64,000 nucleotides of DNA, from positions 15-64,014 of the forward strand of contig CAZGEP010000003.1 in NCBI GenBank assembly GCA_964524955.1, written 5' to 3'. The translations under genes were made by a program, and so were the position numbers. This DNA comes from an uncultured Planctomycetota bacterium (GTDB lineage Bacteria > Planctomycetota > CAZGEP01). Below the pieces are notes generated by a model that was not told the origin of the DNA, searched no databases, and saw only the letters and a program-made list of their open reading frames with translations. Below, piece by piece: positions 14,963-32,495 of the stretch. Every line of letters starts with the position of its first letter. Positions within the stretch are counted from its first letter, which is position 1.

Positions 14963-17900
14963 ATGACAAACGAAGAAGTTTTAATACGGACAAGATTTAG
15001 GCTGGATCTAACACCTAAGAGGGTAGTTTTTACTGATGATATTGATTATACTGTAGCCGGGGATGATATAGATGATTTTTCCGGGGTGATTCGTATTTCC
15101 GGGCCTAATGGATTGATATATGAGAATACGGATTTTGGTGATCCGGATATTGTTCCGGGAACATCTCGGGAGTCATTAATTTTGATAACTCTTCCTGTTG
15201 ATCCGCAAAATGGGTACCAGGTGTATGATGGCACATATACGGTCAAATATACTATTCGTAATAATAGCACGTTGGCCACTTATGAGGAGACCTTTGTGTA
15301 TGGGTTTCATTTTGAAGAACCCACTATGCTGCATGATGTTGACTCTGGACCTTTTACAGCTACCCTTAGAAGTCGGGATCTGACCAATTATGGATCTCAT
15401 ATAGATACTCTTACACGGGTACACACACTTCACTATCCAGAAGGAATAACCCCTTCTCCTCCGGCTGATATCGTTACAGCCTTGGATGATTACACCGTTG
15501 ATCCTGCTTATTCAAATTTGTGGGAGATAACCATTGAAACGAATGTTCTATATATCCAGCCCGATCAACTTGAATATCGGTGGATAGGATCGATCTATAC
15601 GGAGCATTGCGTGTTTGGGTCATGTATAAATGACATGGCCGATGTGCTGGGTATTATGTTTGATCTGTATATCGGATATACCACTACGAACCCGGCTAAA
15701 GCGGCACAGTTTCGTGAACGCCTTATAAAATCCTCAACAGCATATTCTTTAATGGAGATTGCCTGGAGGGCTGGCGATTATGAGGAGGCTGATAAGCAGA
15801 TCAATATTATTCAGGACCAGGTTCAGCTTAGTGGAGTCACATCATGTGTCCAGGGTGGACCCAGCTCAGAGGTTATACCATGTGGGCCATGGGATGGAAC
15901 CGGTATAGCATCACCTGAATATACGTTTAATAATGCCATAACAGAGGTAGCTGGTGTTGTTAGCCTCGGGGGATCATTGATCAATGATACCAATATAGTT
16001 GCCGGAGGATATCATTTTGATGTTTCTGGTGCCTCGGTAGGACATTCGGTGCAGATGCGTATCGATGCTGCTAATCCACATATATTTATTGCAGCTGATG
16101 ATGGATCTAATCAGGGCAAGGTATTGGTCTATGAGAATGGCGTTGATCTGGAGTATAACGATCTGGGAACGCCAGCAAACAATAAGAAATATTCATTAGG
16201 ATCATCGGGGCTGGTTGAGAACGCTGATTACATAAGCGATTATGTTAATCGGTCCCTGGTAAGCAAGGAGTATGTCGATAGCAGCATTCCGGATGTGGCC
16301 GTTGTTTCAGATGCCTCCCTTACGGGTGATGGTAGTGTGGGGGATCCTCTGCAGGTTGCTGTACCCTTCCCGGGATTTACAGATCTAAGTACAGATTATG
16401 GATATAGTGAACCGACACATGCTTTTTCGGAGATTACATCAACACCAACGACACTTGCTGGATATGGCATAACGGATGCTGTTGAGGATTTTCTTGGACT
16501 ATCTGATACCCCATCGGCATATACCGGTGAGGGAGAAAAGTTTCTAAAGGTAAATGCCGGTGAAACAGCAGTTGAGTTTTCGTCTGCATCGGGGTTTGTT
16601 CCTGATACCGGTGGCACGTTTACCGGCCAGGTGACAATATTTACATCGGAAAATTATCCTTTAATTCTTCAACAGGTCGGTAGTGGAGAGACCGTAGGCG
16701 TTGCAGACCCCAGTATTAATCAGATACAGTTTCAAGATAATGATGGTGATGTGCAGGGAGTGATTGGGATCGATGGTACCGGTAATTTAATGTTAGAGAC
16801 AAATGTCTCTGGCCAGCTGGTTCAGGTTGGTGGGGATTTTGATGTGCTTGGTGATATTACTGTGTCGGGGACCGTTGATGGTGTTGACATAAATGCTTTT
16901 AAAACATTGTTTGATGCACATACACATGATTTTGCTGATATTACCAGCACACCAACAACCTTGTCTGGGTATGGTATAACGGATGCAATGTTAAATACGG
17001 CAGAATCATGGCTGACAGAATTTGATGAAAAGATTGGAGTAACAATATCTGATCGCCTGGTTATCGAAGATGTGGCTGATAGTGGAACAAAGAAATATGT
17101 ATCTGTAGGTGAGCTGCCTAATTCAGCTGCTACATTTTTAGCATTAACGGATGCTCCATCCAGCTTTTCGGGTTCTGGCGATTATGTAGTTACGGTAAAC
17201 ACCGCAACAACAGCATTGGAGTTTACTGATTATAGTGGTTTGCACATAACAACCGCAGATGGAACATTGAACGCCTATTCTGAAAAAGTTCTACCAACAA
17301 TCAATGATGTGCTGATCATTGAAGATGCTGCAGACTCATATGAACAGAAAAAAATATACATAGGAAATCTTCCTTCATCTGGTGGAGGATCCGGAGTTGC
17401 CTTGTATTACAGGTTTGATAACACCACGGCAAAAGCAGATCCTACAGCTGGACGTTTTCGATTAAATAACGCCACATTAGCAGATGTGACGGAGATCTAT
17501 GTTGATGATCTGGCCTATAATTCAATTGATATAAGTACTATCATTGAAAATATTTACGTTGGAGATTATTTGTATATCCAGCAGCTGGACTCTACATCTA
17601 ATGTGGTTATTTATAGAGTAACAGCCATAGCGGTTGATGAGGTTGGTTATTATACTGTTGCTGTAGAATATGTTTCTGAAGGTGGTGATGGGCCTGATAA
17701 TAATGCTGATTGTGGTATCATAATTCAGCCTTCCATAACATCGGCCTATACTTTTCAACATTCTATTGAAGAATCATCGGGTATTGTAAATCTCGTTAAT
17801 GATGAGGTCAGCCCTGGTAACAGTAAGCTATATGGAACGGATGGTTCGGGAGCCAAGGGGTGGTTTGATATTACAGGTGATCATGATGCGGTAACTATTG

Positions 17901-20900
17901 GTAGCCCTGCTAATGGATTATCATTATCTACACAGGAATTATCTCTCGCTCTTGCCTCTACCTCAACAACGGGGGCTTTAAGCTCTACCGACTGGAATAC
18001 TTTTGATGGTAAAGCGGAGTTTCCACTTGTTAATTCAGGCGGTACATATCCCACTCCTTCTGCAAGTTTTGGGGATGGAGATACGTTTTTAAGAGAATCA
18101 GCAGATGATGTGCTTGATCTGTATGTTGCTAATAGTAAGATACTACATTTTGACAGCGAAGGGGTTGATTTTGTAAATGGGAAAGGAATAAGTTTTTATT
18201 CTGATAACGGATCGACAAGAATTGCTAATATAACTCCCTTTAGTGATGATATATACTTTTCTCTTGATACAGGTATGCTCTATTTAGGAGGTGATGAAGT
18301 AATAGTTAGTAGTTCAACAGGGTTTAGGGCACAGGGTACTGTAAGATTTGCTGATGGTGCAACAGCAGGGTATTATTTAAAATGTACGGATAGTATTGGC
18401 ACTGCAGAGTGGGCAGCTGTAACTGCTTCACAAACGTATAAGGGTGTCTGGGATGCAGATACCAATGATCCTACCCTTGCTGATGGTACAGGTACAGCTG
18501 GGGATTATTACAGAGTGACGGTAGCAGGTACTCAGGATCTTGGTTCAGGTAATATTACTTTTAGCGTTGGTGATGATGTAACCTATGATGGTAGCGTATG
18601 GAATAGAATACCTGCTGCGACAATAGTAGGTAACGCCTTAACAAAAACCGATGATACTAATGTTACACTGAGCCTTGGTGGCTCCGCATCTACAGCATTG
18701 GTAAACGCTGCCTCTATTACAGTTGGGTGGACGGGAACTCTTGCTGATGAACGTATTGCGAGTGCTTCTAATTGGAATACCGCCTATGGATGGGGTGATC
18801 ATGCCGGGTTATATGATGATTATGATCATTGGAACCTTAAAACCAATAATGTTCACAGAACAACGATAGGATCGGATGGCGACCTGGATATTGTCGCTGG
18901 CACCAACGTGACGGTATCTTATAGTGCTGGTGGTGTGGTGACGATCAGCTCTACCGACACCGATACAGATACAACCTATACGGCTGGAGATGGCCTGGAT
19001 CTAACGGGCACTGAGTTTTCTGTTGATCTGGTTACCGATGGTGGATTAAAAATTACCACTGGGCAATTAGAGGTTGATCTATTGAATATCGATCATGATA
19101 ATTTATTAAACTTTACTGAGGATGAGCATTTTGTCCAGGGAGATATTACAACTGTTGGAACGATTGCTACAGGGGTATGGAACGGAACTGCATTAACGGC
19201 TAATTATGTGCCTGATCATGATGATCTGAACAACGTATCTGCCAATGAACATATTGACTGGACAATTGATCAGGGGGCAACAAACATTCATTCTGGTAAT
19301 TATACTGATACGACATATTCAGATGGACAGGGGATTAATCTTGTAGGTACTGTTTTTGAAGTTAATGCTGGATCAGGATTAATTCAATATTCTACCGGGC
19401 TTTCTCATGATAATACAACCTCTGAGGTTAGTAGTAACAATAGTGGTAGGACATATATACAGGATATTCTTATTGATTCGTTTGGCCATGTGACGGGAAT
19501 AACTACCGCCACGGAAACAGTTGTTAATACGGATACCCATTATTATTTGATTGGCGTTACTGTAAATGCTATTAATGATGTTGATTTTATAGTATCAGGG
19601 GCAGCAGATATTGAGGCAGTAGATTTTAGTCATGATCATGCATGGTCAGATATAACAAGTGGTGTTCCTACTGATATAACTGATATGACCCTCTATGATA
19701 CCGATAATTTAGGTGAGGGGGCAATAAATTTATATTATACAGAGGCCAGGGTAAACGCCAACACAAATGTCGCAGCCAATACAGCGGCCCGGCATGATGC
19801 AGTAACTATTGGTAGCCCTGCTAATGGATTATCATTATCTACACAGGAATTATCTCTCGCTCTTGCCTCTACCTCAACAACGGGGGCTTTAAGCTCTACT
19901 GATTGGAACACATTTAATGATAAGGTTTCGTTTCCCGGGTTTGATTCTTTGCTTAATGATTATGGTTATGTAGAGCCAACTCATGCTTTAGATGAATTGA
20001 CAGATGTCGTTATTTCCGCACCCTCTCCTGATGAAATATTGATATTTAATGGTGAATGGTGGATCAACAACACCTTTGCAGAGGCCGGCATACAGCCAGC
20101 TGCAACTGCGGTAACAACATCAACCTCTTTTGGTGGAGATGTCAGTGGAACATATGATGCTATAGTGGTTGCTGATGATAGTCATACGCACGATACAAGG
20201 TATTATACTGAGACGGAATCAGATGCCAGGTTTGTAGAGGTTGCTGGTGATACGATGAGTGGTACCTTAATTCTTCCATCAATTAGGATAACAACCGGTG
20301 CTACGGATGGTTATTATCTGCGTTCTGATATAAATGGTAATGGTACCTGGGCGGCCGTATCTGCCTCTCAGACTTACAAGGGTACTTGGGATGCAGACAC
20401 CAATGATCCTACCCTTGCCGATGGTACAGGAACGGCTGGTGATTATTACAGGGTAACGGTGGCCGGTACACAAGATCTTGGATCAGGAAATATTACTTTT
20501 AATGTTGGGGATGATGTATCTTATGATGGCAGTGTTTGGGAAAGAATACCTGCAGCAACTATTGTTGGAAATGCTCTAACAAAAACCGATGATACTAATG
20601 TTACACTGAGCCTTGGTGGCTCCGCATCTACAGCATTGGTAAACGCTGCCTCTATTACAGTTGGGTGGACGGGAACTCTTGCTGATGAACGTATTGCGAG
20701 TGCCTCTAATTGGAACACTGCTTATGGATGGGGGGATCATGCAGCTGCTGGATATTTAACTACTCCATATGTTCATCCAGATCATACAGGACAAGTTTTA
20801 TCAAATGGGGATGGAGATACAATTTTAGATGTTAGTGCAATATCAGGTCAAACAGATGATTCTGTTTGTAGTTCAACTGATCAGTTATTATATAACAAGG

Positions 20901-22027
20901 GAGGTAGTCTACGCAGGATGGATATATCTGTTCTTGAAACATACATGCAGGATAATCTGTCTTTTGATGATTATAATGGATGGAGATTGTATACAGACGG
21001 AACCTTCAGAGATACAGTTAATACAAATGAGATTGTTAATTTAGAGGGTGGTAATGTTATTAGTTTAACTTACGATTCTACACTTAATACAATTACCATA
21101 GATCATGATAATCATACAGGACAAGTTTTATCAGATGGTACTGGCGTTACAACCTTAGATGTTAGTGCAATATCAGGTCAAACAGATGATTCTGTTTGTG
21201 GTTCGACTGACCAATTATTATATAATAAGGGAGGTAGTTTACGTAGGATGGATATATCTGTTCTCGAAACATATATGCAGGATAATCTTACTTTTGGGGG
21301 ATCAATATCTTATGGTGGAACTTATCAGATTCCGTATACTAATACGACATCGACTGCTTATCTACATTCATCGAATCTTACTTTTGACGGGTCAACATTA
21401 ACCTTGTCTGGGTCGTTGAGTGCTACAAATATTGGGGCCTTTAATTCAACAGGAACAATTAGCAGATCTACTACAGCAGATGATCAGGATATCATAAGCA
21501 TAACTGGTGGTGGAAGTTATAATACTAATATTTGGAAGATAGGATTAAATAATGCTACTACTTATGGTTTTTATCTCCAATATTATGGTGCAGGTACAGG
21601 AAATTTAAATGGTTTAAGGTTATATACTCACAACCAGACTGGGACAGATGTAATGGCTTATGAAATATTGCAGGATGGAACGGTAACATTTACACAGGAA
21701 ATCACCGCTGCTGATTTTGCTTTAGCATCGGATCCCAGGTTAAAGATTGTTGAATCGCCAGTTACTAATGGACTTGAAATAATTGAGGCGTTGAACCCGG
21801 TTAATTATACCTGGAAAGATAAAAGAGATGATTATAGTCATATTGGATTTCTTACAACAGATGTTGAGAAAGTGCGACCTGAATTAGTTATAAAGGGACA
21901 AGAAACCGATTCTCTTTCATATATGAGGTTTACGGCTATTAATACAGCAGCTATAAAAGAGTTAAATGATCAGATTAAAGAATTGCAGGATCAATTAAAA
22001 GAATTAAAAAATGGCTACAGTACCTAA
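14963..22027 (+). CDS. giant tail fibre (2354 aa) with internally duplicated modules and a C-terminal intramolecular-chaperone (peptidase S74-like) domain
   Basis: Repeated protein modules (HDAVTIGSPANGLSLSTQELSLALASTSTTGALSSTDWNTF x2; QTYKG.WDADTNDPTLADGTGTAGDYYRVTVAGTQDLGSGNITF...SNWNTAYGWGDHA x2; HTGQVLS.G.G.T.LDVSAISGQTDDSVC.STDQLLYNKGGSLRRMDISVLETYMQDNL x2). C-terminus ASDPRLKIVESPVTNGLEIIEALNPVNYTWKD...LKEL matches the auto-cleaving chaperone domain of endosialidase/T5-type fibres. Confidence 0.8.
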   Translation: MTNEEVLIRTRFRLDLTPKRVVFTDDIDYTVAGDDIDDFSGVIRISGPNGLIYENTDFGDPDIVPGTSRESLILITLPVDPQNGYQVYDGTYTVKYTIRNNSTLATYEETFVYGFHFEEPTMLHDVDSGPFTATLRSRDLTNYGSHIDTLTRVHTLHYPEGITPSPPADIVTALDDYTVDPAYSNLWEITIETNVLYIQPDQLEYRWIGSIYTEHCVFGSCINDMADVLGIMFDLYIGYTTTNPAKAAQFRERLIKSSTAYSLMEIAWRAGDYEEADKQINIIQDQVQLSGVTSCVQGGPSSEVIPCGPWDGTGIASPEYTFNNAITEVAGVVSLGGSLINDTNIVAGGYHFDVSGASVGHSVQMRIDAANPHIFIAADDGSNQGKVLVYENGVDLEYNDLGTPANNKKYSLGSSGLVENADYISDYVNRSLVSKEYVDSSIPDVAVVSDASLTGDGSVGDPLQVAVPFPGFTDLSTDYGYSEPTHAFSEITSTPTTLAGYGITDAVEDFLGLSDTPSAYTGEGEKFLKVNAGETAVEFSSASGFVPDTGGTFTGQVTIFTSENYPLILQQVGSGETVGVADPSINQIQFQDNDGDVQGVIGIDGTGNLMLETNVSGQLVQVGGDFDVLGDITVSGTVDGVDINAFKTLFDAHTHDFADITSTPTTLSGYGITDAMLNTAESWLTEFDEKIGVTISDRLVIEDVADSGTKKYVSVGELPNSAATFLALTDAPSSFSGSGDYVVTVNTATTALEFTDYSGLHITTADGTLNAYSEKVLPTINDVLIIEDAADSYEQKKIYIGNLPSSGGGSGVALYYRFDNTTAKADPTAGRFRLNNATLADVTEIYVDDLAYNSIDISTIIENIYVGDYLYIQQLDSTSNVVIYRVTAIAVDEVGYYTVAVEYVSEGGDGPDNNADCGIIIQPSITSAYTFQHSIEESSGIVNLVNDEVSPGNSKLYGTDGSGAKGWFDITGDHDAVTIGSPANGLSLSTQELSLALASTSTTGALSSTDWNTFDGKAEFPLVNSGGTYPTPSASFGDGDTFLRESADDVLDLYVANSKILHFDSEGVDFVNGKGISFYSDNGSTRIANITPFSDDIYFSLDTGMLYLGGDEVIVSSSTGFRAQGTVRFADGATAGYYLKCTDSIGTAEWAAVTASQTYKGVWDADTNDPTLADGTGTAGDYYRVTVAGTQDLGSGNITFSVGDDVTYDGSVWNRIPAATIVGNALTKTDDTNVTLSLGGSASTALVNAASITVGWTGTLADERIASASNWNTAYGWGDHAGLYDDYDHWNLKTNNVHRTTIGSDGDLDIVAGTNVTVSYSAGGVVTISSTDTDTDTTYTAGDGLDLTGTEFSVDLVTDGGLKITTGQLEVDLLNIDHDNLLNFTEDEHFVQGDITTVGTIATGVWNGTALTANYVPDHDDLNNVSANEHIDWTIDQGATNIHSGNYTDTTYSDGQGINLVGTVFEVNAGSGLIQYSTGLSHDNTTSEVSSNNSGRTYIQDILIDSFGHVTGITTATETVVNTDTHYYLIGVTVNAINDVDFIVSGAADIEAVDFSHDHAWSDITSGVPTDITDMTLYDTDNLGEGAINLYYTEARVNANTNVAANTAARHDAVTIGSPANGLSLSTQELSLALASTSTTGALSSTDWNTFNDKVSFPGFDSLLNDYGYVEPTHALDELTDVVISAPSPDEILIFNGEWWINNTFAEAGIQPAATAVTTSTSFGGDVSGTYDAIVVADDSHTHDTRYYTETESDARFVEVAGDTMSGTLILPSIRITTGATDGYYLRSDINGNGTWAAVSASQTYKGTWDADTNDPTLADGTGTAGDYYRVTVAGTQDLGSGNITFNVGDDVSYDGSVWERIPAATIVGNALTKTDDTNVTLSLGGSASTALVNAASITVGWTGTLADERIASASNWNTAYGWGDHAAAGYLTTPYVHPDHTGQVLSNGDGDTILDVSAISGQTDDSVCSSTDQLLYNKGGSLRRMDISVLETYMQDNLSFDDYNGWRLYTDGTFRDTVNTNEIVNLEGGNVISLTYDSTLNTITIDHDNHTGQVLSDGTGVTTLDVSAISGQTDDSVCGSTDQLLYNKGGSLRRMDISVLETYMQDNLTFGGSISYGGTYQIPYTNTTSTAYLHSSNLTFDGSTLTLSGSLSATNIGAFNSTGTISRSTTADDQDIISITGGGSYNTNIWKIGLNNATTYGFYLQYYGAGTGNLNGLRLYTHNQTGTDVMAYEILQDGTVTFTQEITAADFALASDPRLKIVESPVTNGLEIIEALNPVNYTWKDKRDDYSHIGFLTTDVEKVRPELVIKGQETDSLSYMRFTAINTAAIKELNDQIKELQDQLKELKNGYST
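17882..17990. repeat. tail-fibre internal repeat A, copy 1 (~108 nt, near-identical to 19793..19899)
   Basis: catgatgcggtaactattggtagccctgctaatggattatcattatctacacaggaattatctctcgctcttgcctctacctcaacaacgggggctttaagctctac. Confidence 0.85.
18431..18806. repeat. tail-fibre internal repeat B, copy 1 (~375 nt, paired with ~20373..20745)
   Basis: Core 18641..18765 (125 nt) is identical to 20579..20703; flanks are diverged, mostly synonymously. Confidence 0.8.
19793..19899. repeat. tail-fibre internal repeat A, copy 2
   Basis: One mismatch relative to copy 1. Confidence 0.85.
20373..20745. repeat. tail-fibre internal repeat B, copy 2
   Basis: See copy 1. Confidence 0.8.
20783..20960. repeat. tail-fibre internal repeat C, copy 1 (paired with ~21113..21290)
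   Basis: Identical blocks atcatacaggacaagttttatca and ttagatgttagtgcaatatcaggtcaaacagatgattctgtttgt in both copies; the spurious twin ORFs 20829..21044 and 21159..21401 are a footprint of this repeat. Confidence 0.8.
21113..21290. repeat. tail-fibre internal repeat C, copy 2
   Basis: See copy 1. Confidence 0.8.
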
Positions 22028-23135
22028 TACTGATACTTTTACGCTACAGGATGTTGAAGATGTTATTACAACTATAGGTAATAGTTTAGTTGCTTGTTTT
22101 GCTGATGCCGATGCTGATAAATTTGATGAGAAGTATGAAGGGTCGAAGGATAGATTGTCTAATTTTCGTAATTACGGACATGTAGGATCAACATTTACTT
22201 ATTTATATTATCAAGATGGCCCAGCTGTATCTTTATATGGACAGGCAATTCATGGTGAGAAAGGAAGTAGTTATTTTCATGTTATTAGTAATGCATCTGG
22301 AAATCATGGAATAAGAACATATTACATAAATAGTTCAGGTGCAATGTTTTTAATGGATACTTATTCAGGATCTGCTTCGAGGGGGTTATGGGTAAAAAGT
22401 GATTCTGAGATTTTATATTTACAAAAAAATGATTTAAGGGTTTTGAAGTATGACTCAGGAAGTTTGTCGTTGGAAGATAGTATTTCTTTACCTTTTGGTT
22501 ATGATCCTGCTGATCTAACATCAGCAGGAGGTGCTATATATGTTCGGGGAGATTGGAGTGCAGGAGAAACTGAATTATTGATATATAATATTGATTTAAG
22601 TAGTCAATTAACAAAGAATGTTAGTAGTTTAGATCTGGGAGTGTCAATATACTCTATTTATACGCAAGGAGGTTATTTGTTTTTCTCAGCGTTCGTGTCT
22701 TCACAAAACAGGTTGTATGCATATTCTATTGATCCTGTTACTGGTGATCTAAGTTATGCCTCACATATAGAGACAGATTATCTTATTTTACGAATAACTG
22801 GTAATAAAGATGGATTGTTGTATTGTAGTATTAATAGTACAATAATTGAATGTTATAGTGTTACTTCAGCAGGATCAATTTCTCGTAGGGATCAAATATC
22901 TACTTTTAGTAGTTCAACTGGAAGTTTATCATATAAAGAGTTTTCTAATTTTATTTTTGCTAATAAGGACGGATACATATACGCTTTTAGAACAGATGAA
23001 AATGATGATTTTATACAAAGAGCTTTAATGTATGATTCGATTTTTCATAATGGAGATATATACGCTGATTTTGATAATGATATTATTGTGATATCTGACG
23101 AAGATTTCAATTTACGATCTTATCGACTTGAATAA
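22011..23135 (+). CDS. Ser/Tyr-rich beta-propeller-like protein (374 aa), probably tail-associated
   Basis: Recurring h-Y-x-h-S-x-D...G blade-like segments (LYAYSIDPVTGDLS, IYAFRTDEND, LYCSINST); overlaps the tail-fibre stop by 17 nt. Confidence 0.4.
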   Translation: MATVPNTDTFTLQDVEDVITTIGNSLVACFADADADKFDEKYEGSKDRLSNFRNYGHVGSTFTYLYYQDGPAVSLYGQAIHGEKGSSYFHVISNASGNHGIRTYYINSSGAMFLMDTYSGSASRGLWVKSDSEILYLQKNDLRVLKYDSGSLSLEDSISLPFGYDPADLTSAGGAIYVRGDWSAGETELLIYNIDLSSQLTKNVSSLDLGVSIYSIYTQGGYLFFSAFVSSQNRLYAYSIDPVTGDLSYASHIETDYLILRITGNKDGLLYCSINSTIIECYSVTSAGSISRRDQISTFSSSTGSLSYKEFSNFIFANKDGYIYAFRTDENDDFIQRALMYDSIFHNGDIYADFDNDIIVISDEDFNLRSYRLE

Positions 23136-23143
23136 CTGAATAG

Positions 23144-23917
23144 ATGAGAGATTTTAGGAAAATGAGAAACCCAGGTCAAAAGCACCATAGAAAATCACAT
23201 TCTACAATGGAGGTAGATTTTCCAATGGGGTATGTTTTTGTATGGTGTACTTCTCGGTCCGGTCATAACTTTATTATTAATAACATTTATTCATGGTTGG
23301 GGGATCCTGATAGGAAACAAAGAAGATATGTAAATGGGGAGGATTCCTGGCCGGATAGGCTCTATACGGTGGTTAATTGGAATGCCTTTAATCGAAGTCC
23401 GGGATCAATAAAGATTATTTTGATTCGGGATCTGCTGAATTGGTTTGCATCTAAGGTTTATCGAAAACGTCTTCACGATAAACCAAAGGACGTGGAGATG
23501 AAAGCTATCAGGGCAGATATTCAAAGATGGAAGAAGATCGCCAACTATTATTTCAGTGATTTACATCCTTTAATGTCTGGGGCCTACAAAATAAATTATG
23601 ATGAGTTTGTCATATCAGAGGATTATCGCAGGAAAATATGTTCGGAGATCGGGGGCACCTATAATGAAGATTATTTACACATTGTAACTAAAGAGGGGGG
23701 AGGCAGCTCTTTTACTGGATTAAATCAGATAAATGGCAATTACACGGATGTTATTAACCGATATAAGAAACTGGAAGGACTGGATGAGGTTGTGAGTTTG
23801 TTGTTCGAAGATCCGGAGGTTTTGTACCTTTATCTGGATAATTTTGATGTAAGTAAAGAGAAAGATGACTTTTTGGAAAGGCAAATGTTTAAAAGTACCG
23901 ATTGGGGAAATCCTTAG
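23144..23917 (+). CDS. Stf0-family (Sulfotransfer_3-like) sulfotransferase-like protein
   Basis: VWCTSRSGHNFII resembles the Stf0 PAPS 5'-phosphate-binding C-x-x-R-S-G-S-T block; LIRDLLNWFASKVY resembles R-R-D-x-x-x-Q-A-x-S; KINYDEFVISEDYRRKICSEIG resembles the C-terminal YE-x-L-x-x-x-P...LG. The true start may be the internal ATG at 23207. Confidence 0.4.
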   Translation: MRDFRKMRNPGQKHHRKSHSTMEVDFPMGYVFVWCTSRSGHNFIINNIYSWLGDPDRKQRRYVNGEDSWPDRLYTVVNWNAFNRSPGSIKIILIRDLLNWFASKVYRKRLHDKPKDVEMKAIRADIQRWKKIANYYFSDLHPLMSGAYKINYDEFVISEDYRRKICSEIGGTYNEDYLHIVTKEGGGSSFTGLNQINGNYTDVINRYKKLEGLDEVVSLLFEDPEVLYLYLDNFDVSKEKDDFLERQMFKSTDWGNP

Positions 23918-23954
23918 TATTATGTATATTGAGTAATAAATAAAAATCAGAGAC

Positions 23955-24476
23955 ATGGCAAAAGTAAAAATGACAAAAGAACAGGTTCTGAGGCTACACG
24001 CAGGTCTGTCAAAATCCAGGTTGACTGGTCATAGGTTTACCTATGCGGTAACAAAAAACAAAGAATCTCTGGCTCCGGAGGTCAAGGCAATTAGAGAATC
24101 GTTAAAGCCCTTGGAGAAGTATAAGGATTACGAAGAAAGGATCCAGGAGTTAAACGAAAAATTTGCAAACAAAGATAAAAAAGGGAACCCTGTCAGATTT
24201 GATCTTGGCCAGGGGCGTTTTGCATATGATATTCCTGGGGCAAACAGTTCGGAGAGTGAATATTCAAAAGCTGTTGATAAGGTCAAAAAAGAATTTAAGG
24301 ATATCATTGATAAGCAGGAGAAAAAAATTGAGGAAGATAAAAAGTTTCTCCAGGAAGAATCCACTGTTGATATCATGAAGATCTCTCTTAAAATTGTTCC
24401 TGAAGACGCTCCCCAGGAGGTCATGGATGGACTGTTTTTTATGATTAAGGAACCCACTGAAGCTGATATGGAATGA
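23955..24476 (+). CDS. hypothetical structural-module protein (173 aa, K/E-rich)
   Basis: ORF in an overlapping-gene operon. Confidence 0.45.
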   Translation: MAKVKMTKEQVLRLHAGLSKSRLTGHRFTYAVTKNKESLAPEVKAIRESLKPLEKYKDYEERIQELNEKFANKDKKGNPVRFDLGQGRFAYDIPGANSSESEYSKAVDKVKKEFKDIIDKQEKKIEEDKKFLQEESTVDIMKISLKIVPEDAPQEVMDGLFFMIKEPTEADME

Positions 24477-25171
24477 CACTATTTGAAGCATATGAGTTCA
24501 TGTTGTTTGTCCTGGATAAGGATTATAATGGAGATATTCTTACTCCGGCATATTACAATAGATTGTTACAAGCATCTAACTTGATGTATTATAAGTTAAA
24601 GTTTGGTCTACCCGAAGAATATCAGGTAGGCCGACCTGCTCCCAGGCAAGCCCCAGAGATTACTCGTAAGCTGAAAGATGATATTCGACAATTTAAAACG
24701 TTTTCAACTGTAGCTATTGATGGTAATGGTGATGGAGATTTTCCCGACAATTATGGTCATACGGATGCTGTTAGTTATGATAGAATAGTTTCTATTGACG
24801 GGGTGAGTCATACATATCGGTCACCGATTGATGAATTGACACAATCGGAGGCTGATGATCGCCTGGGGAACTATACTAAGATGCCGACCACGAAATATCC
24901 CATTTTAGTATATACCAGTGATGGTATTCGTGTATATCCAACGACAATAACGGTGGTTAATCTTTCTTATTATCGTTTGCCTATTCAGCCGGTGTTTGAT
25001 TATTCGATTGTCGATGATGAGATCTTAGTCGGTGAAGATCCTGTAGAGTGGGATTGGCCGGAAGATTGTCATATGGATATTGTTCGTATTATGCTTTCTG
25101 ATATGGGAGTGAACATTGGCAGTCAATTAATTACGCAGTATTCTGAAATGAAATCACAAAAAGGAGTCTGA
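24473..25171 (+). CDS. hypothetical structural-module protein (232 aa)
   Basis: ATGA overlap with the upstream gene. Confidence 0.45.
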   Translation: MTLFEAYEFMLFVLDKDYNGDILTPAYYNRLLQASNLMYYKLKFGLPEEYQVGRPAPRQAPEITRKLKDDIRQFKTFSTVAIDGNGDGDFPDNYGHTDAVSYDRIVSIDGVSHTYRSPIDELTQSEADDRLGNYTKMPTTKYPILVYTSDGIRVYPTTITVVNLSYYRLPIQPVFDYSIVDDEILVGEDPVEWDWPEDCHMDIVRIMLSDMGVNIGSQLITQYSEMKSQKGV

Positions 25172-25283
25172 TGAAAAGAACAATTATAAGAGGTCGCCAG
25201 AAAAAAACTGATCCATCTAAGGAAAAAAGTTCGCAAGAAAAGCCTGTCAGCTCTAATTCGAAAAGTGAAAAAACAATTAAGAA

Positions 25284-25919
25284 ATGAGAAAGATCCAGTT
25301 GACAGAAATGATAGTTGATTATCTCGCCGGAGGTGATGCCCCATCCGATGTGAGGGGGCGTTATCATGGGGCGATGATCGATCAGTATGTTAACATTGCC
25401 TATAATGATTTAATATACAATGTATATGTTGAGGGTCAGGAGATAGGTGATTACTCTCAGCTGGACTCTTTTGCAAGGGCATTTAGGGCTATTACGGTGT
25501 CTGATGATGGTGATAGGGACCTTAAATACGCTATCCTTCCATTCCCACCGGTCCAGCTTCCCGATAACATGGGTATTCGCTTGATATGTCCTAATGATGA
25601 TCCTACGACAGCATTTGCCTATTTGGATAACAACTCTGTGGCGGTTTTTAGTGCATTGGAGGTATCAAGTGTTGATGATTTGCCTGGGTTCTGGATTGAG
25701 AAAATGGATGATAATGAGTATCGGGTGTATTTTGATAACCCCGGAGATGTTTTGGCCAGTATAATGGCAAAGTTAATTCTGCCCCTGGGACAATATGATG
25801 ATTTTGATGAGGTACCGATGCCGGCAGGAAAAGATATGCACATTTGTGATCTTATTGTTAAACGCCTGAGAGAAAAACCAATGGAAGATCTTATTAATGA
25901 TAATGTACCTAAAACATGA
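25284..25919 (+). CDS. hypothetical structural-module protein (211 aa)
   Basis: ORF; no motif. Confidence 0.45.
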   Translation: MRKIQLTEMIVDYLAGGDAPSDVRGRYHGAMIDQYVNIAYNDLIYNVYVEGQEIGDYSQLDSFARAFRAITVSDDGDRDLKYAILPFPPVQLPDNMGIRLICPNDDPTTAFAYLDNNSVAVFSALEVSSVDDLPGFWIEKMDDNEYRVYFDNPGDVLASIMAKLILPLGQYDDFDEVPMPAGKDMHICDLIVKRLREKPMEDLINDNVPKT

Positions 25920-26677
25920 GTACAGAAAGTCCAAAAACAGCCGGGTATGTCAGTATACGATATGTAGTAATGTCTATTTTAAATAGGCGTAAAGACTACA
26001 CAATGCGACATTATAAGCATATTGCTCAATTGGTGATTGAGGGGTTTACCTCACTTAATATGTTTCACCTTCCCAATATCGAGGTGGAATATTTGTATAT
26101 GACCAGTAATAAAAGAGTATCAGTTCCTTTGGATTTTGTTGATTGGATTAAGGTTGGAGTGCCTATTAATGGTAAATTAAGGGTTCTTACAAAAGATGAT
26201 AAGATACTTCTTCCCCGGGAGTTTAGCGATGGTGCTGATGTTGGGAATGCTGATGCTGTTAATGTTAATCAAAATGTATTTTTTACTGATCATTTTAATG
26301 GTGGACAGTATGTAGGTGGGCTATATGGAATGCGAGGAGGTGTGAATACCGCCTATTATCGTTATGATGAGGAATCCCGGCAGTTTGTGTTTACCGGTAA
26401 CATACCACGGTCAGAGGTGGTTTTGGAATATATCTCTTCCGGAGTAAGTCTATCAGGATCCACGGTGATACCCAGGATAGCACATATGCCGCTTGTGACA
26501 TATGTTGATTGGTGGGAGGCAGAGAATGATCGTAGAGTATCCCTGGGAGAGAAAGAAAGGAAAAAAAGAAATCATTTTGAAGAGGTTGAGGCTGCCAGAT
26601 CGTTTGTGAGTACGCCAACTATTGAGGAATACAAAGATAGCCTATACAGAAGCATGAAGCAAACAGCTAAACGATGA
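25916..26677 (+). CDS. hypothetical structural-module protein (253 aa)
   Basis: ATGA overlaps on both sides. Confidence 0.45.
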   Translation: MSTESPKTAGYVSIRYVVMSILNRRKDYTMRHYKHIAQLVIEGFTSLNMFHLPNIEVEYLYMTSNKRVSVPLDFVDWIKVGVPINGKLRVLTKDDKILLPREFSDGADVGNADAVNVNQNVFFTDHFNGGQYVGGLYGMRGGVNTAYYRYDEESRQFVFTGNIPRSEVVLEYISSGVSLSGSTVIPRIAHMPLVTYVDWWEAENDRRVSLGEKERKKRNHFEEVEAARSFVSTPTIEEYKDSLYRSMKQTAKR

Positions 26678-29600
26678 TTAAAGAAGTCAACATATCATTT
26701 CCGGGAGGCATGGATTCTGATTCCGATGATGCAAATATTGCACGGGGTGATTATCGCATGTTAAAGAATATGAGAAATGGCATTTCTTCTGATGGCAAGG
26801 GTGGTACTATTGAGAATTTTCCGAACGTATCTCAGATTACAATGTCTGCTATATCCGGAGCAACGTTCTTGGGAGCGGCTGAAGATCATGAAAATGATGT
26901 GGTATATCTGTTATATAGTAATAATTATCTTGTTAGCTTAGATAAAGACAGAAGCCTTGTTTATATTTTAAAAGGTGAGTCGGCATTAAATCTCAACGAG
27001 TCATATCCTATTTACAACGCCAGGTATCTCGATGGAAAGGTTTATTTTACAGATAATAATAGCGAGCCAAAGGTAGTTGATATTCAGAGGGCAATTAATT
27101 ATACAGAGAATTTCGAAGGAAGGACATTTAGGGGGCAGTATATTACAACAATGTATTTTATAGGTGATGTAGTTACTTTTGGTAATTATTATTATACCCC
27201 CAAGCAAGATGGATTAATAGGAACATTACCTTATTCGACAGCACATTGGGAACAATTGTCAAAGATTTCCGAAAGCTATGCTCCGGATCTACAGGAACAG
27301 GATTTGTATATCATTACAAAGCCACCAATGAATCCTCCGGAATATTATTTTATTACCGATTCATCATATAGAGGAAATAGAACCAGGAACAAGAATTTTC
27401 AATTTGCATACAGATATGTATATCAGGATTTCCGAAAAAGTGTTTTCAGTCCTGCTTCTCAATTAGTAGTGGAGGGTAATTATGAAAATATTTATGGGAC
27501 ATTTCCAATAGATAGGGGTTATGGAGAAGTTAATAATGCTATAAGAGTTGAGTTTCATACGGGTTCCTTTGAAGTACAGTTTATTGAAATTATTTACAGG
27601 AGTACCGATGATATGTCAACGTGGTATTTATTTAAAACTGTTGAAAAAAGAGATTTTGATGGTCGGGTTTTGTTAGCTGATGATATAGAATGGTTTGAGA
27701 TTTTTCACAATGATACATTAAATATTCCGGTATCAGATACAGAGGTGTATAAGCCCTATCATTATGTACCTGAAAAAGCCGGGTTTTTAGAATTAATCGA
27801 TGATAATCATTTGGTGTTTGCGGATGTAGTTGAAGGCAAGGATCCGGTTACTACAGATGTGTCTTACGAACTTAGTGTTAAAGATGTATCTTCATCATTA
27901 AATAATAAATTTAATCTTATTGCCGGTGTAGTTAAAAGATATACAGCGGAATCAGATGGTACTATAGAAACGGAGGCTCAATGGTATATTAAGCATCCAA
28001 GTTTTCATGTTTTATATCCAGGAGAAGGCAATATAGTTGTTAAACAATATTATGACGGGGGAATCAAAACCGCAACAATAAGCTATAGTGCAGCAGATGC
28101 TTCTATTGCCGATACAGTAAGTAGATTAAGGAATGAGTGTATTGCCCAAGGAATGGATGTAGATACTGCTTTTGAAGTAGCGTGGGATGAAGATCGAGTT
28201 TGTTTTAATACTCAAAGGTCTTATACGAGTGTTGAAGATAAATATTATGATCAAGGTTATAGTGTTATTGCTTATGTATCACCCGTAGTTAATACAGAAA
28301 ATGTAGCGAAAGTCTTAAAACAAGGAGCCATTCATTCATGTGGTCTTGTATATATGGATGATAGTAGAAGAGCTTCTTCGATTGTTGGTCAAGATCAGAT
28401 GAAAGCATATGTTCCTTTTATGACTGAAGACACTGAATATGGATCCTTATTACCAAATCATAGGTTTTCGTTAAAGTTTATTATAAACCACAAGCCTCCT
28501 TCTTGGGCCACGAAATACATGGTCGTGTATCAAGGTTCTAATATATCTACTTTTTGGTGTGCCAGATCAGATGTGTCGATAATTTATGGATCGGGGTTTC
28601 AAGGGTTGAGGATTTTTGAGTGGTATGATAAAATGAAGGAACAATGGGAAGATTTTTCGCAAGAGCCATATGAGTTTCAAGAAGGTGATCGTGCCAGATT
28701 ATTAGGGATCGCTGATTTCTCTGCGGATAATTTTGTTCCAGCTGATGAATTTATTGATGTTCCGGTTTTAGGGTTAAAAAACAGAGAGGTAATGGAGGAT
28801 GGGGAATTGGTAGAGAAAGAACCGTATGTAATGGTGACTTTACCTTCTGGTTATAGTTATAGCGGTGACGAGTCTGTTTGGGAAATATATCGTCCTAAGA
28901 AGACTGATGATATGCTTTTTTATGAGACCGGCCAGGTGTGGGATATATCTGAAACTGGTAATGGATTTGTTCATGAAGGAAATACTGATCAGGTATTAGA
29001 TATTGATGGAAATGTCACCACATCTGCTGTAGTAAATGTTGATTTTGGAGATGCTTACAAATATATGATGCCGTTTTTTGAAACTGCTACTCGGGTACTC
29101 ACGTTTATGGAAAATCCATATTCCGCAATTTTTGGAAGTAAATATAAAATAGAAGACTTGGGTTTTCCGAAGGTTTTTGATGAGTTTTTGAAAAACAAAA
29201 GATTGAATAACCGTTATCGTTATGGAGGATCATTGCAGCTGGGGACGAAAAATAATCAAATAGCTGATTTTGAGTATGGCGATTATGGTGATCTGGAAGG
29301 TAATTACGGGATTATAAATGGTTTGGAGAAAGTTGGGTTTGTGCTTAAATTATTGCAATCTCACAGGGTTTGGAGTATATATATCAAAAGAACATCATCA
29401 TTTAACCCGGATGGATCCGAATCTCTGATATTGACCGATGCTATTTTGGGTACAAAGCGGCCTGATTCTCAAATATGGGGGTTGCAGGATCGTGGTGCTG
29501 TTGCCGTTCATGAGAGGCATATGTATTTCTGGGATAGATCCCGGGGGCTTATTCTTCGTGATAGTGCAAATGGTCTTTTCCCGATATCGGATTATAAGAT

Positions 29601-30279
29601 GATCAATTATTTCAGAGACCTTTCATTTGATGCTGCTGCGGATATGCAATGCAGAATTGGCTTTAATGAGGCATATGATGAGGTGTATTTCTGTTTTTAT
29701 GAAGAAGGAGGATCTGATAATAAGATCGTGGTATTTCTGGAAGATCAGCAGAGGCCCAGGTGGACGCATGAGATAGAAATCGAGTGTAGTGGTATTGCAA
29801 ATATAGGTAATCGGTTATTTACTTTCCTGGGTAATATTATTGACAGTTGGTTTAATGATACCTCTTATTCTGGATTTTTAAGGGCAGAATATCCGGATCC
29901 TGAATTTGAGTTTGTTGTAAATGTTGATCCGGAGAAAGTGAAAAGGTGGAGGGCATTATCATATGATGCCTCTCATAAGTTTTATGCTCCTAATGTTGGA
30001 GATATATCAACGCCGGCCAATGATAATTACGGATCTGGGATGGAGACCAGGTTACTGGAGGCCAGTGTAAAAAGCAAGGAGGGAGTGTACTATGCTTCGA
30101 TAAAAAACGATGCTAATACTCCGGGGGCAGCTGATGTGGCCGAGGCTATCGTTAATGGCAGACCATTAAGGGGAAAGACCATAAAGATTAAATTAACTCT
30201 GGATGCCAGTGATCATAATAATGAGTATATAAATTTTGAAAATGTGAAAATAGTATATTCAGATAGTGAAAAAAGTTAA
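26674..30279 (+). CDS. large virion protein (1201 aa), candidate tail/internal-core component
   Basis: Translationally coupled to the upstream gene and followed by the Gly-rich and giant-protein genes. Confidence 0.45.
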   Translation: MIKEVNISFPGGMDSDSDDANIARGDYRMLKNMRNGISSDGKGGTIENFPNVSQITMSAISGATFLGAAEDHENDVVYLLYSNNYLVSLDKDRSLVYILKGESALNLNESYPIYNARYLDGKVYFTDNNSEPKVVDIQRAINYTENFEGRTFRGQYITTMYFIGDVVTFGNYYYTPKQDGLIGTLPYSTAHWEQLSKISESYAPDLQEQDLYIITKPPMNPPEYYFITDSSYRGNRTRNKNFQFAYRYVYQDFRKSVFSPASQLVVEGNYENIYGTFPIDRGYGEVNNAIRVEFHTGSFEVQFIEIIYRSTDDMSTWYLFKTVEKRDFDGRVLLADDIEWFEIFHNDTLNIPVSDTEVYKPYHYVPEKAGFLELIDDNHLVFADVVEGKDPVTTDVSYELSVKDVSSSLNNKFNLIAGVVKRYTAESDGTIETEAQWYIKHPSFHVLYPGEGNIVVKQYYDGGIKTATISYSAADASIADTVSRLRNECIAQGMDVDTAFEVAWDEDRVCFNTQRSYTSVEDKYYDQGYSVIAYVSPVVNTENVAKVLKQGAIHSCGLVYMDDSRRASSIVGQDQMKAYVPFMTEDTEYGSLLPNHRFSLKFIINHKPPSWATKYMVVYQGSNISTFWCARSDVSIIYGSGFQGLRIFEWYDKMKEQWEDFSQEPYEFQEGDRARLLGIADFSADNFVPADEFIDVPVLGLKNREVMEDGELVEKEPYVMVTLPSGYSYSGDESVWEIYRPKKTDDMLFYETGQVWDISETGNGFVHEGNTDQVLDIDGNVTTSAVVNVDFGDAYKYMMPFFETATRVLTFMENPYSAIFGSKYKIEDLGFPKVFDEFLKNKRLNNRYRYGGSLQLGTKNNQIADFEYGDYGDLEGNYGIINGLEKVGFVLKLLQSHRVWSIYIKRTSSFNPDGSESLILTDAILGTKRPDSQIWGLQDRGAVAVHERHMYFWDRSRGLILRDSANGLFPISDYKMINYFRDLSFDAAADMQCRIGFNEAYDEVYFCFYEEGGSDNKIVVFLEDQQRPRWTHEIEIECSGIANIGNRLFTFLGNIIDSWFNDTSYSGFLRAEYPDPEFEFVVNVDPEKVKRWRALSYDASHKFYAPNVGDISTPANDNYGSGMETRLLEASVKSKEGVYYASIKNDANTPGAADVAEAIVNGRPLRGKTIKIKLTLDASDHNNEYINFENVKIVYSDSEKS

Positions 30280-30935: not shown

Positions 30936-32495
30936 ATGGCGAATTTAATTGGATATGGTGCAGCACAAATTTTTCCGGAACAAGATACCGGGACTGCTAT
31001 TCGTGAATACATGAAGGCCAAAGCTGCTGGAAAAGCCAAAAGGAGAGAAGAACAGGGCAGTTATGGTGATGAACCTTTTGAGGTTCCAGATATAAAACGA
31101 TGGGAAGATGAGAAAAATTTTAATGAGATTACGCAAATGGAGGGAACCCTTCGTGATGTCTGGAACAAGTCATATCAATCGGGATATAATATAAGAAACC
31201 CACAAACGCCACAGGATGCTGTTTTATCAAAAAGATATTATGATTCATGGAAAAAGTATGAGGAGGCTGTTGATCTATATACGACTCAAGGAGAAAGGGT
31301 AAATGATGTTATTGGGCAAATAGATAAGATGGACCCGGAGGAGTATGATGTAGAGGCAACACGGGAAAATTTAGAAAGGTATATTGACGCACCTTCTGTT
31401 TTTGATCGGGCAGGAATGGTGGACAGCATTATAGTTCGTAAAGAAGAGGAGTTTGATGGATTGGAATATATAACTGAGATGTTTCCAAAGTTGACCTCAA
31501 CAAGTAAATATATCACATCGGAAGATATCGATCCGGAGACGGGGAAAATACGAAAAGAAACCTGGGAGGGAATTCCGGAGACTGTCAGAAAAGATGCTAT
31601 TAGAACAATGTATAACGCCGGTGATGCTCGATTCAAAACTTATGTTGATGATTTGAGGGAATCCAATAAAGATGCAACATTAGATAACCCCAATTGGGAT
31701 AATGCTGAATTTGCAGCGAATTATTTCTCTGATATTAAGAAGGGTGGAAAAGAAAATTTAGTGTTTTATTCAACCGGTGGTGGAGACTTTAACCTGGGCA
31801 TAGGATATGGTAATGGCAAGCCCCAAAAACTGGAAGATGGACAGTATGTTAGCAATGAAGAATCGGTATGGTTGTATAATAAAAATAGTGCCGGAAAGAC
31901 TGAACATACATCTCCATTCCAGGTGAATTTGAATAATGATGAGTTGTTTGGAAAGTCAACTTCGCATGTGCAGATGCCAATAACAGATGAGGTTATTAAT
32001 GCCGAAACCGGAAAAAGGGAGGCCGTAAGTTCGCAGTCTTTATTTCGACCTAATAAAATTGTATGGCTTCCGGTTGTGTCTGGAGAACAGAAAAAAGGTG
32101 GTGCTGGATTATGGGATAATGTTACTACCATGTTAAACCCAAACAAATATACCAGGGGAGCTATATTAGGCGATGAGGATTTGCAAAAACTTCAAAATGC
32201 AATGCAGGAAAATCCAGGGACTGCATCAGGCTATGTTTGGCGTCCATATGTTATAGGAACGATGGGATATAAAAGAAAAGAAGGAGAAGTTGGTGGTAAA
32301 GAGCGAATTCTTAATTTGAATCGAAGTGTATATGTTCCATATGAAGATATGTCTGATGAGTTAATAGGCAAGTTTGGGCCGAAATGGGACAAAGCCATTG
32401 GAGATGATGTTACAGAGATCACAAAACAGGCTAATTTTGGTTTAACATCAACACAGGAAAATCAAGAAATAGATTTTAATTCATTAGGATTATAA
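30936..32495 (+). CDS. hypothetical virion protein (519 aa)
   Basis: Its stop overlaps the giant gene start by 1 nt (TAATG). Confidence 0.45.
   Translation: MANLIGYGAAQIFPEQDTGTAIREYMKAKAAGKAKRREEQGSYGDEPFEVPDIKRWEDEKNFNEITQMEGTLRDVWNKSYQSGYNIRNPQTPQDAVLSKRYYDSWKKYEEAVDLYTTQGERVNDVIGQIDKMDPEEYDVEATRENLERYIDAPSVFDRAGMVDSIIVRKEEEFDGLEYITEMFPKLTSTSKYITSEDIDPETGKIRKETWEGIPETVRKDAIRTMYNAGDARFKTYVDDLRESNKDATLDNPNWDNAEFAANYFSDIKKGGKENLVFYSTGGGDFNLGIGYGNGKPQKLEDGQYVSNEESVWLYNKNSAGKTEHTSPFQVNLNNDELFGKSTSHVQMPITDEVINAETGKREAVSSQSLFRPNKIVWLPVVSGEQKKGGAGLWDNVTTMLNPNKYTRGAILGDEDLQKLQNAMQENPGTASGYVWRPYVIGTMGYKRKEGEVGGKERILNLNRSVYVPYEDMSDELIGKFGPKWDKAIGDDVTEITKQANFGLTSTQENQEIDFNSLGL

Follow-up and report, generated by a model that had tools for sequence, protein, structure and literature searches.

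A sulfotransferase-fold gene in a phage tail region

The 64,000-nt stretch analysed here (the window; positions 15 to 64,014 of contig CAZGEP010000003.1, assembly GCA_964524955.1) carries, at 23144..23917 on the + strand, an ATG-to-TAG open reading frame (ORF) of 257 residues. An earlier note had suggested that it is a Sulfotransfer_3/Stf0-type sulfotransferase gene in a phage tail region, dependent on 3'-phosphoadenosine 5'-phosphosulfate (PAPS). We use FAM as the label for the unannotated family of this ORF and for its member genes. The window protein has a basic, low-confidence N-terminal extension (residues 1-28) and a catalytic core of approximately residues 29-250. The ORF has the coordinates given in the note and contains all three motifs reported for it, and the conservation of these motifs in 221 relatives indicates that they are not chance strings.

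FAM is flanked on both sides by late structural genes. Upstream lies a 2354-aa protein (14963..22027, +), a tail fibre because of its C-terminal Peptidase_S74 intramolecular chaperone domain. Its end overlaps the start of orf374 (22011..23135, +), a 374-aa receptor-binding-like protein of which the first 59 residues match phrog_21885, a conserved N-terminal adaptor. FAM starts 8 nt past the end of orf374, and a 37-nt gap separates it from the co-directional downstream genes (23955..30279, +), which encode a 173-aa ORF and then proteins matching virion structural PHROGs 14543, 13977 and 14478. The position downstream of the fibre in the tail region is therefore as the earlier note had it; its beta-propeller-like label for orf374 was not confirmed, the single-sequence AlphaFold2 model being all-beta with a predicted local distance difference test score (pLDDT) of 39. 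The fibre contains two long internal duplications: a block of approximately 120 residues beginning SQTYKGVWDADTNDPTLADGTGTAGDYYRVTVAGTQDLGSGNITF is present twice, as is HDAVTIGSPANGLSLSTQELSLALASTSTTGALSSTDWNTF.

All genes of the window, from approximately 365 to 63138, are on the + strand, with terminase and portal matches upstream of FAM. The portal is approximately 25% identical to those of Cellulophaga, Flavobacterium, Maribacter and Tenacibaculum podophages, which identifies the window as a Bacteroidota-type phage with FAM embedded in its tail region. Approximately 8 kb of the 72-kb contig lie outside the window. By composition, FAM is native to the phage (GC content 0.379, GC content at third codon positions (GC3) 0.384, codon-usage correlation 0.86). 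The composition of orf374 is deviant (GC 0.317 and GC3 0.163, versus approximately 0.38 to 0.42 for its neighbours), and such a strongly deviant GC3 next to the native composition of FAM suggests that orf374 is a receptor-binding cassette swapped in recently, and FAM a resident enzyme gene. Between 21500 and 25500, promoter-like and terminator-like matches were no commoner than in shuffled sequence, and the + strand of this segment had no terminator-like site. FAM is probably transcribed with the late tail genes.

The predicted structure has a PAPS-type site

The AlphaFold2 model of the FAM protein, made from an 84-sequence alignment, has a pLDDT of 87.2 and a predicted template-modelling (TM) score (pTM) of 0.84, and is weak only at residues 1-20 and in a loop at approximately 180-200. 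In a Foldseek search against the Protein Data Bank (PDB), the top 19 matches are all sulfotransferases, ahead of any other P-loop protein. Most are tyrosylprotein sulfotransferases (TPSTs), and the set includes TPST2, TPST1, tick TPST, SULT1A3, the CurM sulfotransferase domain, SULT7A1, SULT1C1, oestrogen sulfotransferase and Sult2a8. The best E-value is 3.6e-4, with query-normalised TM-scores of 0.46-0.50 for TPST and 0.31-0.43 for the other sulfotransferases; structures of RadA and kinases rank under the sulfotransferases, and only at low probability. Among predicted viral structures (BFVD), an uncharacterised protein of Hokovirus ranks first (TM 0.56/0.61), followed by proteins from giant viruses and marine viruses that are named sulfotransferase.

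Four hallmarks define the sulfotransferase superfamily (PMC11625862). The first is a central parallel beta-sheet (3-5 strands) with helices flanking it. The second is a PAPS-binding loop of strand-loop-helix form, in which a Gly and either Lys or Arg are conserved. The third is a 3'-phosphate site of strand-turn-helix form, where an Arg and, in the helix, a Ser are conserved; the fourth is a base, His or Glu, carried by a variable loop. The FAM model has a 4-strand sheet (30-34, 61-64, 89-94 and 148-151) with flanking helices. Strand 30-34, the loop S37-R38-S39-G40 and helix 41-51 reproduce the PAPS-binding loop, and strand 89-94, R95-D96 and helix 97-110 bearing S103 reproduce the 3'-phosphate site. 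The pocket that the earlier note expected is thus present in a confidently predicted fold, and we regard the assignment to a sulfotransferase fold with an intact PAPS-type site as solid at the level of the model.

Conservation, here expressed as percentages over 221 aligned family sequences, is close to complete at the residues of this putative site. CTSRSGHN (residues 35-42; 23246..23269, +), between strand 30-34 and helix 41-51, is the predicted PAPS 5'-phosphosulfate-binding (PSB) loop; R38 is 98% conserved (K in 2%), S39 93%, G40 100%, H41 93% and N42 65%. The loop is of the R-x-G type (R38, S39, G40); unusually, the conserved pair H41-N42 stands where T-T would be expected. The predicted 3'-phosphate-binding (3'-PB) motif, RDLLNWFASKVY (residues 95-106; 23426..23461, +), has the strand-turn-helix arrangement, and its R95 and S103 are each 100% conserved with an R-to-S spacing of 8, as in TPST2 (R183...S191). 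Further along, YDEFV...YRRKICSEIGG (residues 152-171; 23597..23656, +) covers strand 4 and the next helices and is conserved and collinear with TPST2; within it, YDEFV spans residues 152-156 and EIGG 168-171, with Y152 at 93%, F155 at 85% and R162 at 100%. The family-specific invariant loop GGGSSF (residues 185-190; 23696..23713, +), with S188 at 100% and F190 at 98%, lies in a flexible segment of low pLDDT and is probably a lid over the active site. R206, elsewhere in the protein, is also 100% conserved. As candidates for the catalytic base, the alignment offers E66 (23339..23341, +; 92% conserved, just past strand 61-64) and H41. Judged by these motifs, the RSGHN loop and the GGGSSF loop set FAM apart from the described families.

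TPST1 and TPST2 (PDB 3AP1-3, 5WRI/J and 8W5Z) are the best structural matches, with Foldseek E-values of 3.6e-4 to 1e-2, and the motifs are collinear: TPST PRSGTT corresponds to SRSGHN, VRDGRASVHS to IRDLLNWFAS, YYEQLV to YDEFV and PGGVSLS to GGGSSF, and YYEQLV...LDFLG runs parallel to YDEFV...EIGG. Aligned by hhalign with human TPST2 (the sequence used is identical to 3AP3), R95 pairs with R183, S103 with S191, YDxF with YYEQL and GGGSSF with PGGVSLS; at a greedier setting, R38-S39-G40-H41-N42 pairs with R78-S79-G80-T81-T82. We take this alignment as corroboration, not proof. The differences are considerable. Identity is 11-14%, FAM is smaller with a 4-strand sheet, H41-N42 replaces T81-T82, and, while R78 has its equivalent in R38, the alignment, itself of low probability, leaves the TPST residues E99, K158 and S285 unaligned or opposite gaps. 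Moreover, TPST is a Golgi enzyme, whereas FAM is viral and cytoplasmic.

A large viral family that current databases miss

Sequence searches gave little. The FAM protein has no Pfam match at E<=1, no match in PHROGs, noise only in NCBIfam and, with phmmer, no match among PDB chains at E<=10; the family profile searched against PDB sequences likewise gave noise only (PF0455, rhodanese and halogenases, E>0.07). It has no match in PADLOC either, which holds defence-system models only, so that this null excludes a known defence protein but not a counter-defence role. The hidden Markov model (HMM) search for PF13469 and PF09037, of which the earlier note had said that a lack of hits would refute its assignment, formally came out that way. 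Pfam, NCBIfam and PHROGs miss the family.

Relatives are nonetheless numerous. phmmer found 4 besides the query and a profile search 87, and an exhaustive profile search returned 2,566 cluster representatives at E<=1e-3, 1,459 of them at E<=1e-10. None of the 2,566 has a precomputed Pfam domain or an informative name. When 84 relatives were scanned individually against Pfam, PF17784 (Sulfotransfer_4, an S. mansoni-type family) was the only family matched recurrently, weakly and in 22 of them (best E 7.1e-5). In 5 of 10 members examined singly, its matches score 12.6-18.9 bits over profile positions 89-172 of 215; in the relatives they centre on the 3'-PB strand-turn-helix and the helices after it. 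Membership of Sulfotransfer_4 was rejected, all scored matches being below the gathering score of 22.8 bits and the window protein having none at E<=1. PF13469, the family of NodH and of phage sulfotransferases listed as auxiliary metabolic genes, was touched by only 2 of the 84 (E 0.14), and PF09037 was not among their 25 most-matched Pfam families. With no Pfam match at E<=1 for the window protein, we also rejected membership of Stf0 (PF09037) or Sulfotransfer_3 (PF13469); of the earlier proposal, the fold and the PAPS-type pocket residues stand, the family names do not. The likeness to Stf0/Sulfotransfer_3 lies in the R-x-G PSB loop, which lacks the Lys of cytosolic SULTs, and in the RD...S 3'-PB motif (PMC11625862). 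A PHROG scan of the 84 members found no corresponding family; the few matches were each to a single member, and none were to chaperones.

Among GenBank phages (50,697 records), tblastn with three divergent FAM members and megablast of window positions 22000-26000 gave no match, and two pattern scans of 185,579 GTDB species genomes found no FAM relative. Members do occur on metagenomic viral contigs, including a crAss-like contig of 84 kb and phage contigs of 42-93 kb; 9 FAM loci are in IMG/VR and 38 in metagenomes. FAM had not been annotated before and is confined almost wholly to viral sequences. In the literature searched, neither the family nor sulfation tied to phage tails was reported. 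The earlier remark that sulfotransferases are uncommon in phages holds only in part: the family has thousands of metagenomic members, and canonical sulfotransferases, usually PF13469 proteins in marine phages, have been reported repeatedly as viral auxiliary genes with no role described (PMC10580990). Outside viruses, distant relatives of 314-338 aa were seen on filamentous cyanobacterial chromosomes (L007:10001-10945, L008:10001-10966 and L056:10001-11017), each directly after an alpha/beta hydrolase gene; genes for cobalamin adenosyltransferase and FraC lie nearby.

Tail-module synteny within one clade

For synteny, ORFs were called in all fetched loci and clustered by BLASTP, and the neighbours of FAM were labelled in 43 non-redundant FAM groups. 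In the closest relatives the order is tail fibre, a 108-aa protein, the variable protein A_up195, FAM, sometimes B_160 (see below), and a large structural protein. The fibres upstream of FAM in related metagenomic phages are homologous to that of the window. A_up195 is a variable protein of 160-300 aa with the N-terminus MA[LM]PxSG...[DE]FYGY and Cys- or Ser/Thr-rich variable C-termini. In 14 groups it is encoded among the genes clustered around FAM, and in 11 of these it is the gene directly upstream; an equivalent protein is present in L009, and in the window orf374 holds the same position. The gap between the receptor-binding-like gene and FAM, 8 nt in the window, is 4-26 nt in most related loci, and some of the called ORFs overlap. 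Overall, at least 17 of the 43 groups have a tail or receptor-binding context when fibre-adjacent cases are counted.

In a neighbour-joining tree, the tail-context members form one clade with the window gene, and the fibre-adjacent L038 falls in the other. Tail-clade proteins mostly carry a basic N-terminal extension of 25-70 residues, while the others begin at strand 1. FAM is kept beside the receptor-binding protein (RBP) across relatives that are only 26-39% identical. In its clade, FAM has been passed on along with the genes for the tail fibre and the receptor-binding protein. This association is a property of the clade and not of the family, because many members have no tail gene nearby.

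One RBP-like protein (L002:411-1331, N-terminus MALPTSG) has a C-terminal half that by eye resembles a Hint/intein-type domain (CLAGETLI...VDHPF).

Partner enzymes near other family members

B_160, an unannotated family of 160-200 aa, adjoins FAM in 6 non-redundant groups (L002:1343-1936, L025:1641-2186, L027:1556-2035, L030:1199-1732, L031:1419-1895 and L044:1219-1698). It matches neither Pfam nor the PDB. Its invariant pattern, G[GS]-x(12-16)-D-x-D...D, is that of Pol-beta-type nucleotidyltransferases, and from this G[GS]...DxD...D motif we describe it as nucleotidyltransferase-like. A 637-aa protein, P0100, combines an N-terminal domain homologous to B_160 (residues 13-175, E 2.8e-26), a FAM domain (215-436) and a C-terminal Methyltransf_8 domain (E 6e-19), and in L002/L003 B_160, FAM and a methyltransferase are separate adjacent genes. 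HMMs built from B_160 found no homologue in the window.

In L012 (550-2805), an AT-rich viral contig, FAM lies 2 nt downstream of a UDP-GlcNAc 2-epimerase gene (E 5.8e-54 to 6VLB). Next comes another ORF, whose GPHRSG and YRDINDIIKS motifs are sulfotransferase-like, and the three genes are tightly packed. A link to glycans is hinted at by this epimerase and by the fusion or adjacency with a nucleotidyltransferase-like protein and a Methyltransf_8 enzyme.

Two further families were seen near FAM. A radical-SAM-type protein (S-adenosylmethionine, SAM; motif GCPNxCxWC) is encoded immediately upstream of FAM in L043 (7087-8007) and two genes downstream in L014 (9193-10317). F_205, a family of approximately 200 aa with an MTRDP motif and invariant GxGDL, KRWPD and RxQxxxxRDP, lies 1-2 genes upstream of FAM in three groups; its loci are L005:9038-9616, L013:1712-2320, L014:5739-6671, L043:1079-1717 and, in the window, 365-982, 22 kb from FAM. 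It has no match in Pfam or the PDB. None of the partner families A_up195, B_160, D_108, C_big and F_205 has a Pfam match.

Within the window, a Pfam scan of 39 proteins (every ORF of 100 aa or more that is not nested in another, terminase and portal excepted) gave no match to nucleotidyltransferase, methyltransferase, PAPS-synthesis or integrase families.

Proposed function

We favour, with a probability of roughly 0.58, the reading that FAM encodes a late-expressed PAPS-dependent sulfotransferase of which the acceptor is a glycan linked to adsorption. The ORF, the family and its synteny, the modelled fold, and the conservation of the residues at the modelled PAPS site are observed. The steps from PAPS use and catalysis to time of expression and acceptor would be as follows. 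A small cytoplasmic enzyme of the PAPS-dependent superfamily (core of approximately 230 residues) would hold host-made PAPS, the R38-S39-G40-H41 loop contacting the 5'-phosphosulfate and R95/S103 the 3'-phosphate. E66 or H41, acting as general base, would deprotonate the acceptor hydroxyl for in-line attack on the sulfuryl group, with the GGGSSF loop closing over the active site. The acceptor may be the host surface polysaccharide recognised by the neighbouring receptor-binding protein, or a virion glycan. We favour a carbohydrate because the RBP neighbourhood is conserved, because an epimerase gene adjoins FAM in L012 and because a family member is fused to other enzymes of tailoring type.

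P22-like and Sf6-like temperate phages offer a parallel, in that their O-antigen-modifying genes (gtrABC, oac) adjoin tailspike genes: there too, an enzyme that could alter the surface glycan to which the phage binds is encoded beside a receptor-binding gene. However, gtrABC and oac encode membrane glycosyl- or acetyltransferases expressed by prophages from their own promoters, whereas FAM is soluble and in line with late structural genes. Those phages are temperate, and the 39 window proteins include no integrase match. The lysogenic conversion raised as a possible role in the earlier note is unlikely, because of this lack of an integrase match among the 39 proteins scanned and because the gene lies in line with virion-structural genes.

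Several observations weigh against a sulfotransferase acting in adsorption. The FAM protein has no significant sequence match to any sulfotransferase model or structure, the TM-scores against known structures are moderate (approximately 0.5), and the hhalign probability against TPST1/2 is only 4-7%, with a template profile of just 1-2 sequences. The PSB loop has H-N where described enzymes have T-T or S-T, and no catalytic base could be mapped. Since none of the 39 proteins matches a PAPS-synthesis family, the enzyme depends on host PAPS. As to the setting, many members are surrounded by small non-structural genes and have no tail genes near them, the conserved synteny may reflect vertical inheritance only, and the link to glycans consists of one locus plus partner enzymes of unproven function.

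One alternative is a true sulfotransferase that is accessory and unrelated to adsorption. Its acceptor would be a small molecule, a metabolite or a nucleotide; sulfation might, for instance, render a compound of the host harmless or inactive, or serve in counter-defence. The tail site would be an insertion-tolerant region with which the gene was then inherited. Most FAM members of 200-220 aa do lie among short early-type ORFs of crAss-like and other phages, and the partners (a minimal nucleotidyltransferase-like protein of the size of antibiotic nucleotidyltransferases, a SAM methyltransferase and a radical SAM enzyme) are typical small-molecule tailoring enzymes; the distant cyanobacterial relatives follow an alpha/beta hydrolase gene and not glycan genes. 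We nevertheless consider this explanation unlikely. Against it stand the retention of FAM beside the RBP at 26-39% identity, a second, also fibre-adjacent lineage, the N-terminal extension that tail-clade enzymes have gained and the others lack, and, within the scope given above, the PADLOC null.

The TPST likeness raises the possibility of a protein sulfotransferase, analogous to TPST or RaxST, that O-sulfates Tyr (or Ser/Thr) of the phage's own RBP or fibre before assembly and so tunes receptor binding. FAM immediately follows the RBP-like gene, RBP-like N-termini have Tyr in acidic contexts (DADADKFDEKYEG in orf374, DFYGY in A_up195), and the N-terminal extension of tail-clade enzymes could be a docking element. 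Virion glycosylation in mycobacteriophages is a precedent for virion-modifying enzymes in structural operons. However, no counterparts could be mapped for the catalytic residues E99, K158 and S285 of TPST, and the TPST match may reflect only a shared minimal core at a TM-score of approximately 0.5. The N-terminal domain with the acidic Tyr motif is probably widespread in phages that have no FAM enzyme, and neither the members outside tail modules nor the epimerase neighbour would be explained. We judge this explanation to be improbable.

Equally improbable is a protein that is no sulfotransferase, be it a degenerate P-loop-like kinase or nucleotide-dependent transferase or a non-catalytic fibre assembly factor keeping only the fold: no sulfotransferase HMM scores above threshold, H41-N42 occupies the Walker A Lys and Ser/Thr positions (T-T in described sulfotransferases) and the gene sits where fibre chaperones are often encoded, but the Walker A motif GxxxxGK[ST] is absent, the 3'-phosphate residues R95 and S103 and also R162, S188 and R206 are 100% conserved in 221 sequences, which argues for a retained ligand site, FAM is conserved next to a hypervariable upstream RBP, which is not the pattern of cognate chaperones, and members also occur far from any fibre gene. 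A P-loop kinase or NTPase was accordingly rejected, with no Walker A motif and with H (93%) and N (65%) at its K and S/T positions; so was a tail-fibre assembly chaperone, whose position would fit but for which there is no PHROG match and which would not explain the members away from tail genes.

Returning to sulfation of an adsorption-linked acceptor, a broader joint reading is a tentative one and, as a whole, doubtful: a dedicated, lineage-conserved sulfation step in the phage tail module, aimed at the receptor-binding apparatus (protein or attached glycan) or at a host receptor glycan, would be part of a wider undescribed viral tailoring toolkit. That toolkit would consist of nucleotidyltransferase-like, sulfotransferase-like and methyltransferase proteins, encoded as neighbouring genes or as a single fused polypeptide. 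We know of no demonstrated phage-encoded sulfation of a virion or receptor.

What is new here is a family, restricted to viruses and not described before, that has a variant cofactor loop and, in one clade, a conserved position in the tail module. If active, its members would add to the sulfotransferase superfamily a new branch that is abundant, virus-restricted and represented by thousands of metagenomic sequences. The place of FAM beside hypervariable receptor-binding genes in Bacteroidota-type podophages makes sulfation a possible factor in adsorption or virion surface chemistry, and the likely hosts of many such phages are marine bacteria that handle sulfated polysaccharides. The recurrent partners (nucleotidyltransferase-like protein, methyltransferase and, in one contig, UDP-GlcNAc epimerase) suggest a modular viral tailoring pathway. 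Should sulfation of virion or receptor, which we presently infer, prove true, the biology would be notable; should FAM be merely another auxiliary sulfotransferase, the gain would be an HMM that annotates a large block of viral dark matter.

Other features of the window

At 32495-46846 the window encodes a giant polyvalent protein of 4783 aa, with an LPD38 large polyvalent protein domain and Strawberry-notch-type helicase domains (AAA_34 and Helicase_C_4), within a podophage-like genome of approximately 72 kb. Other Pfam matches in the window are YqaJ exonuclease, RusA, CHAP, Cpn10, DNA polymerase beta thumb, an I-HmuI-like homing endonuclease and DUF5018, a domain typical of Bacteroidota surface proteins.

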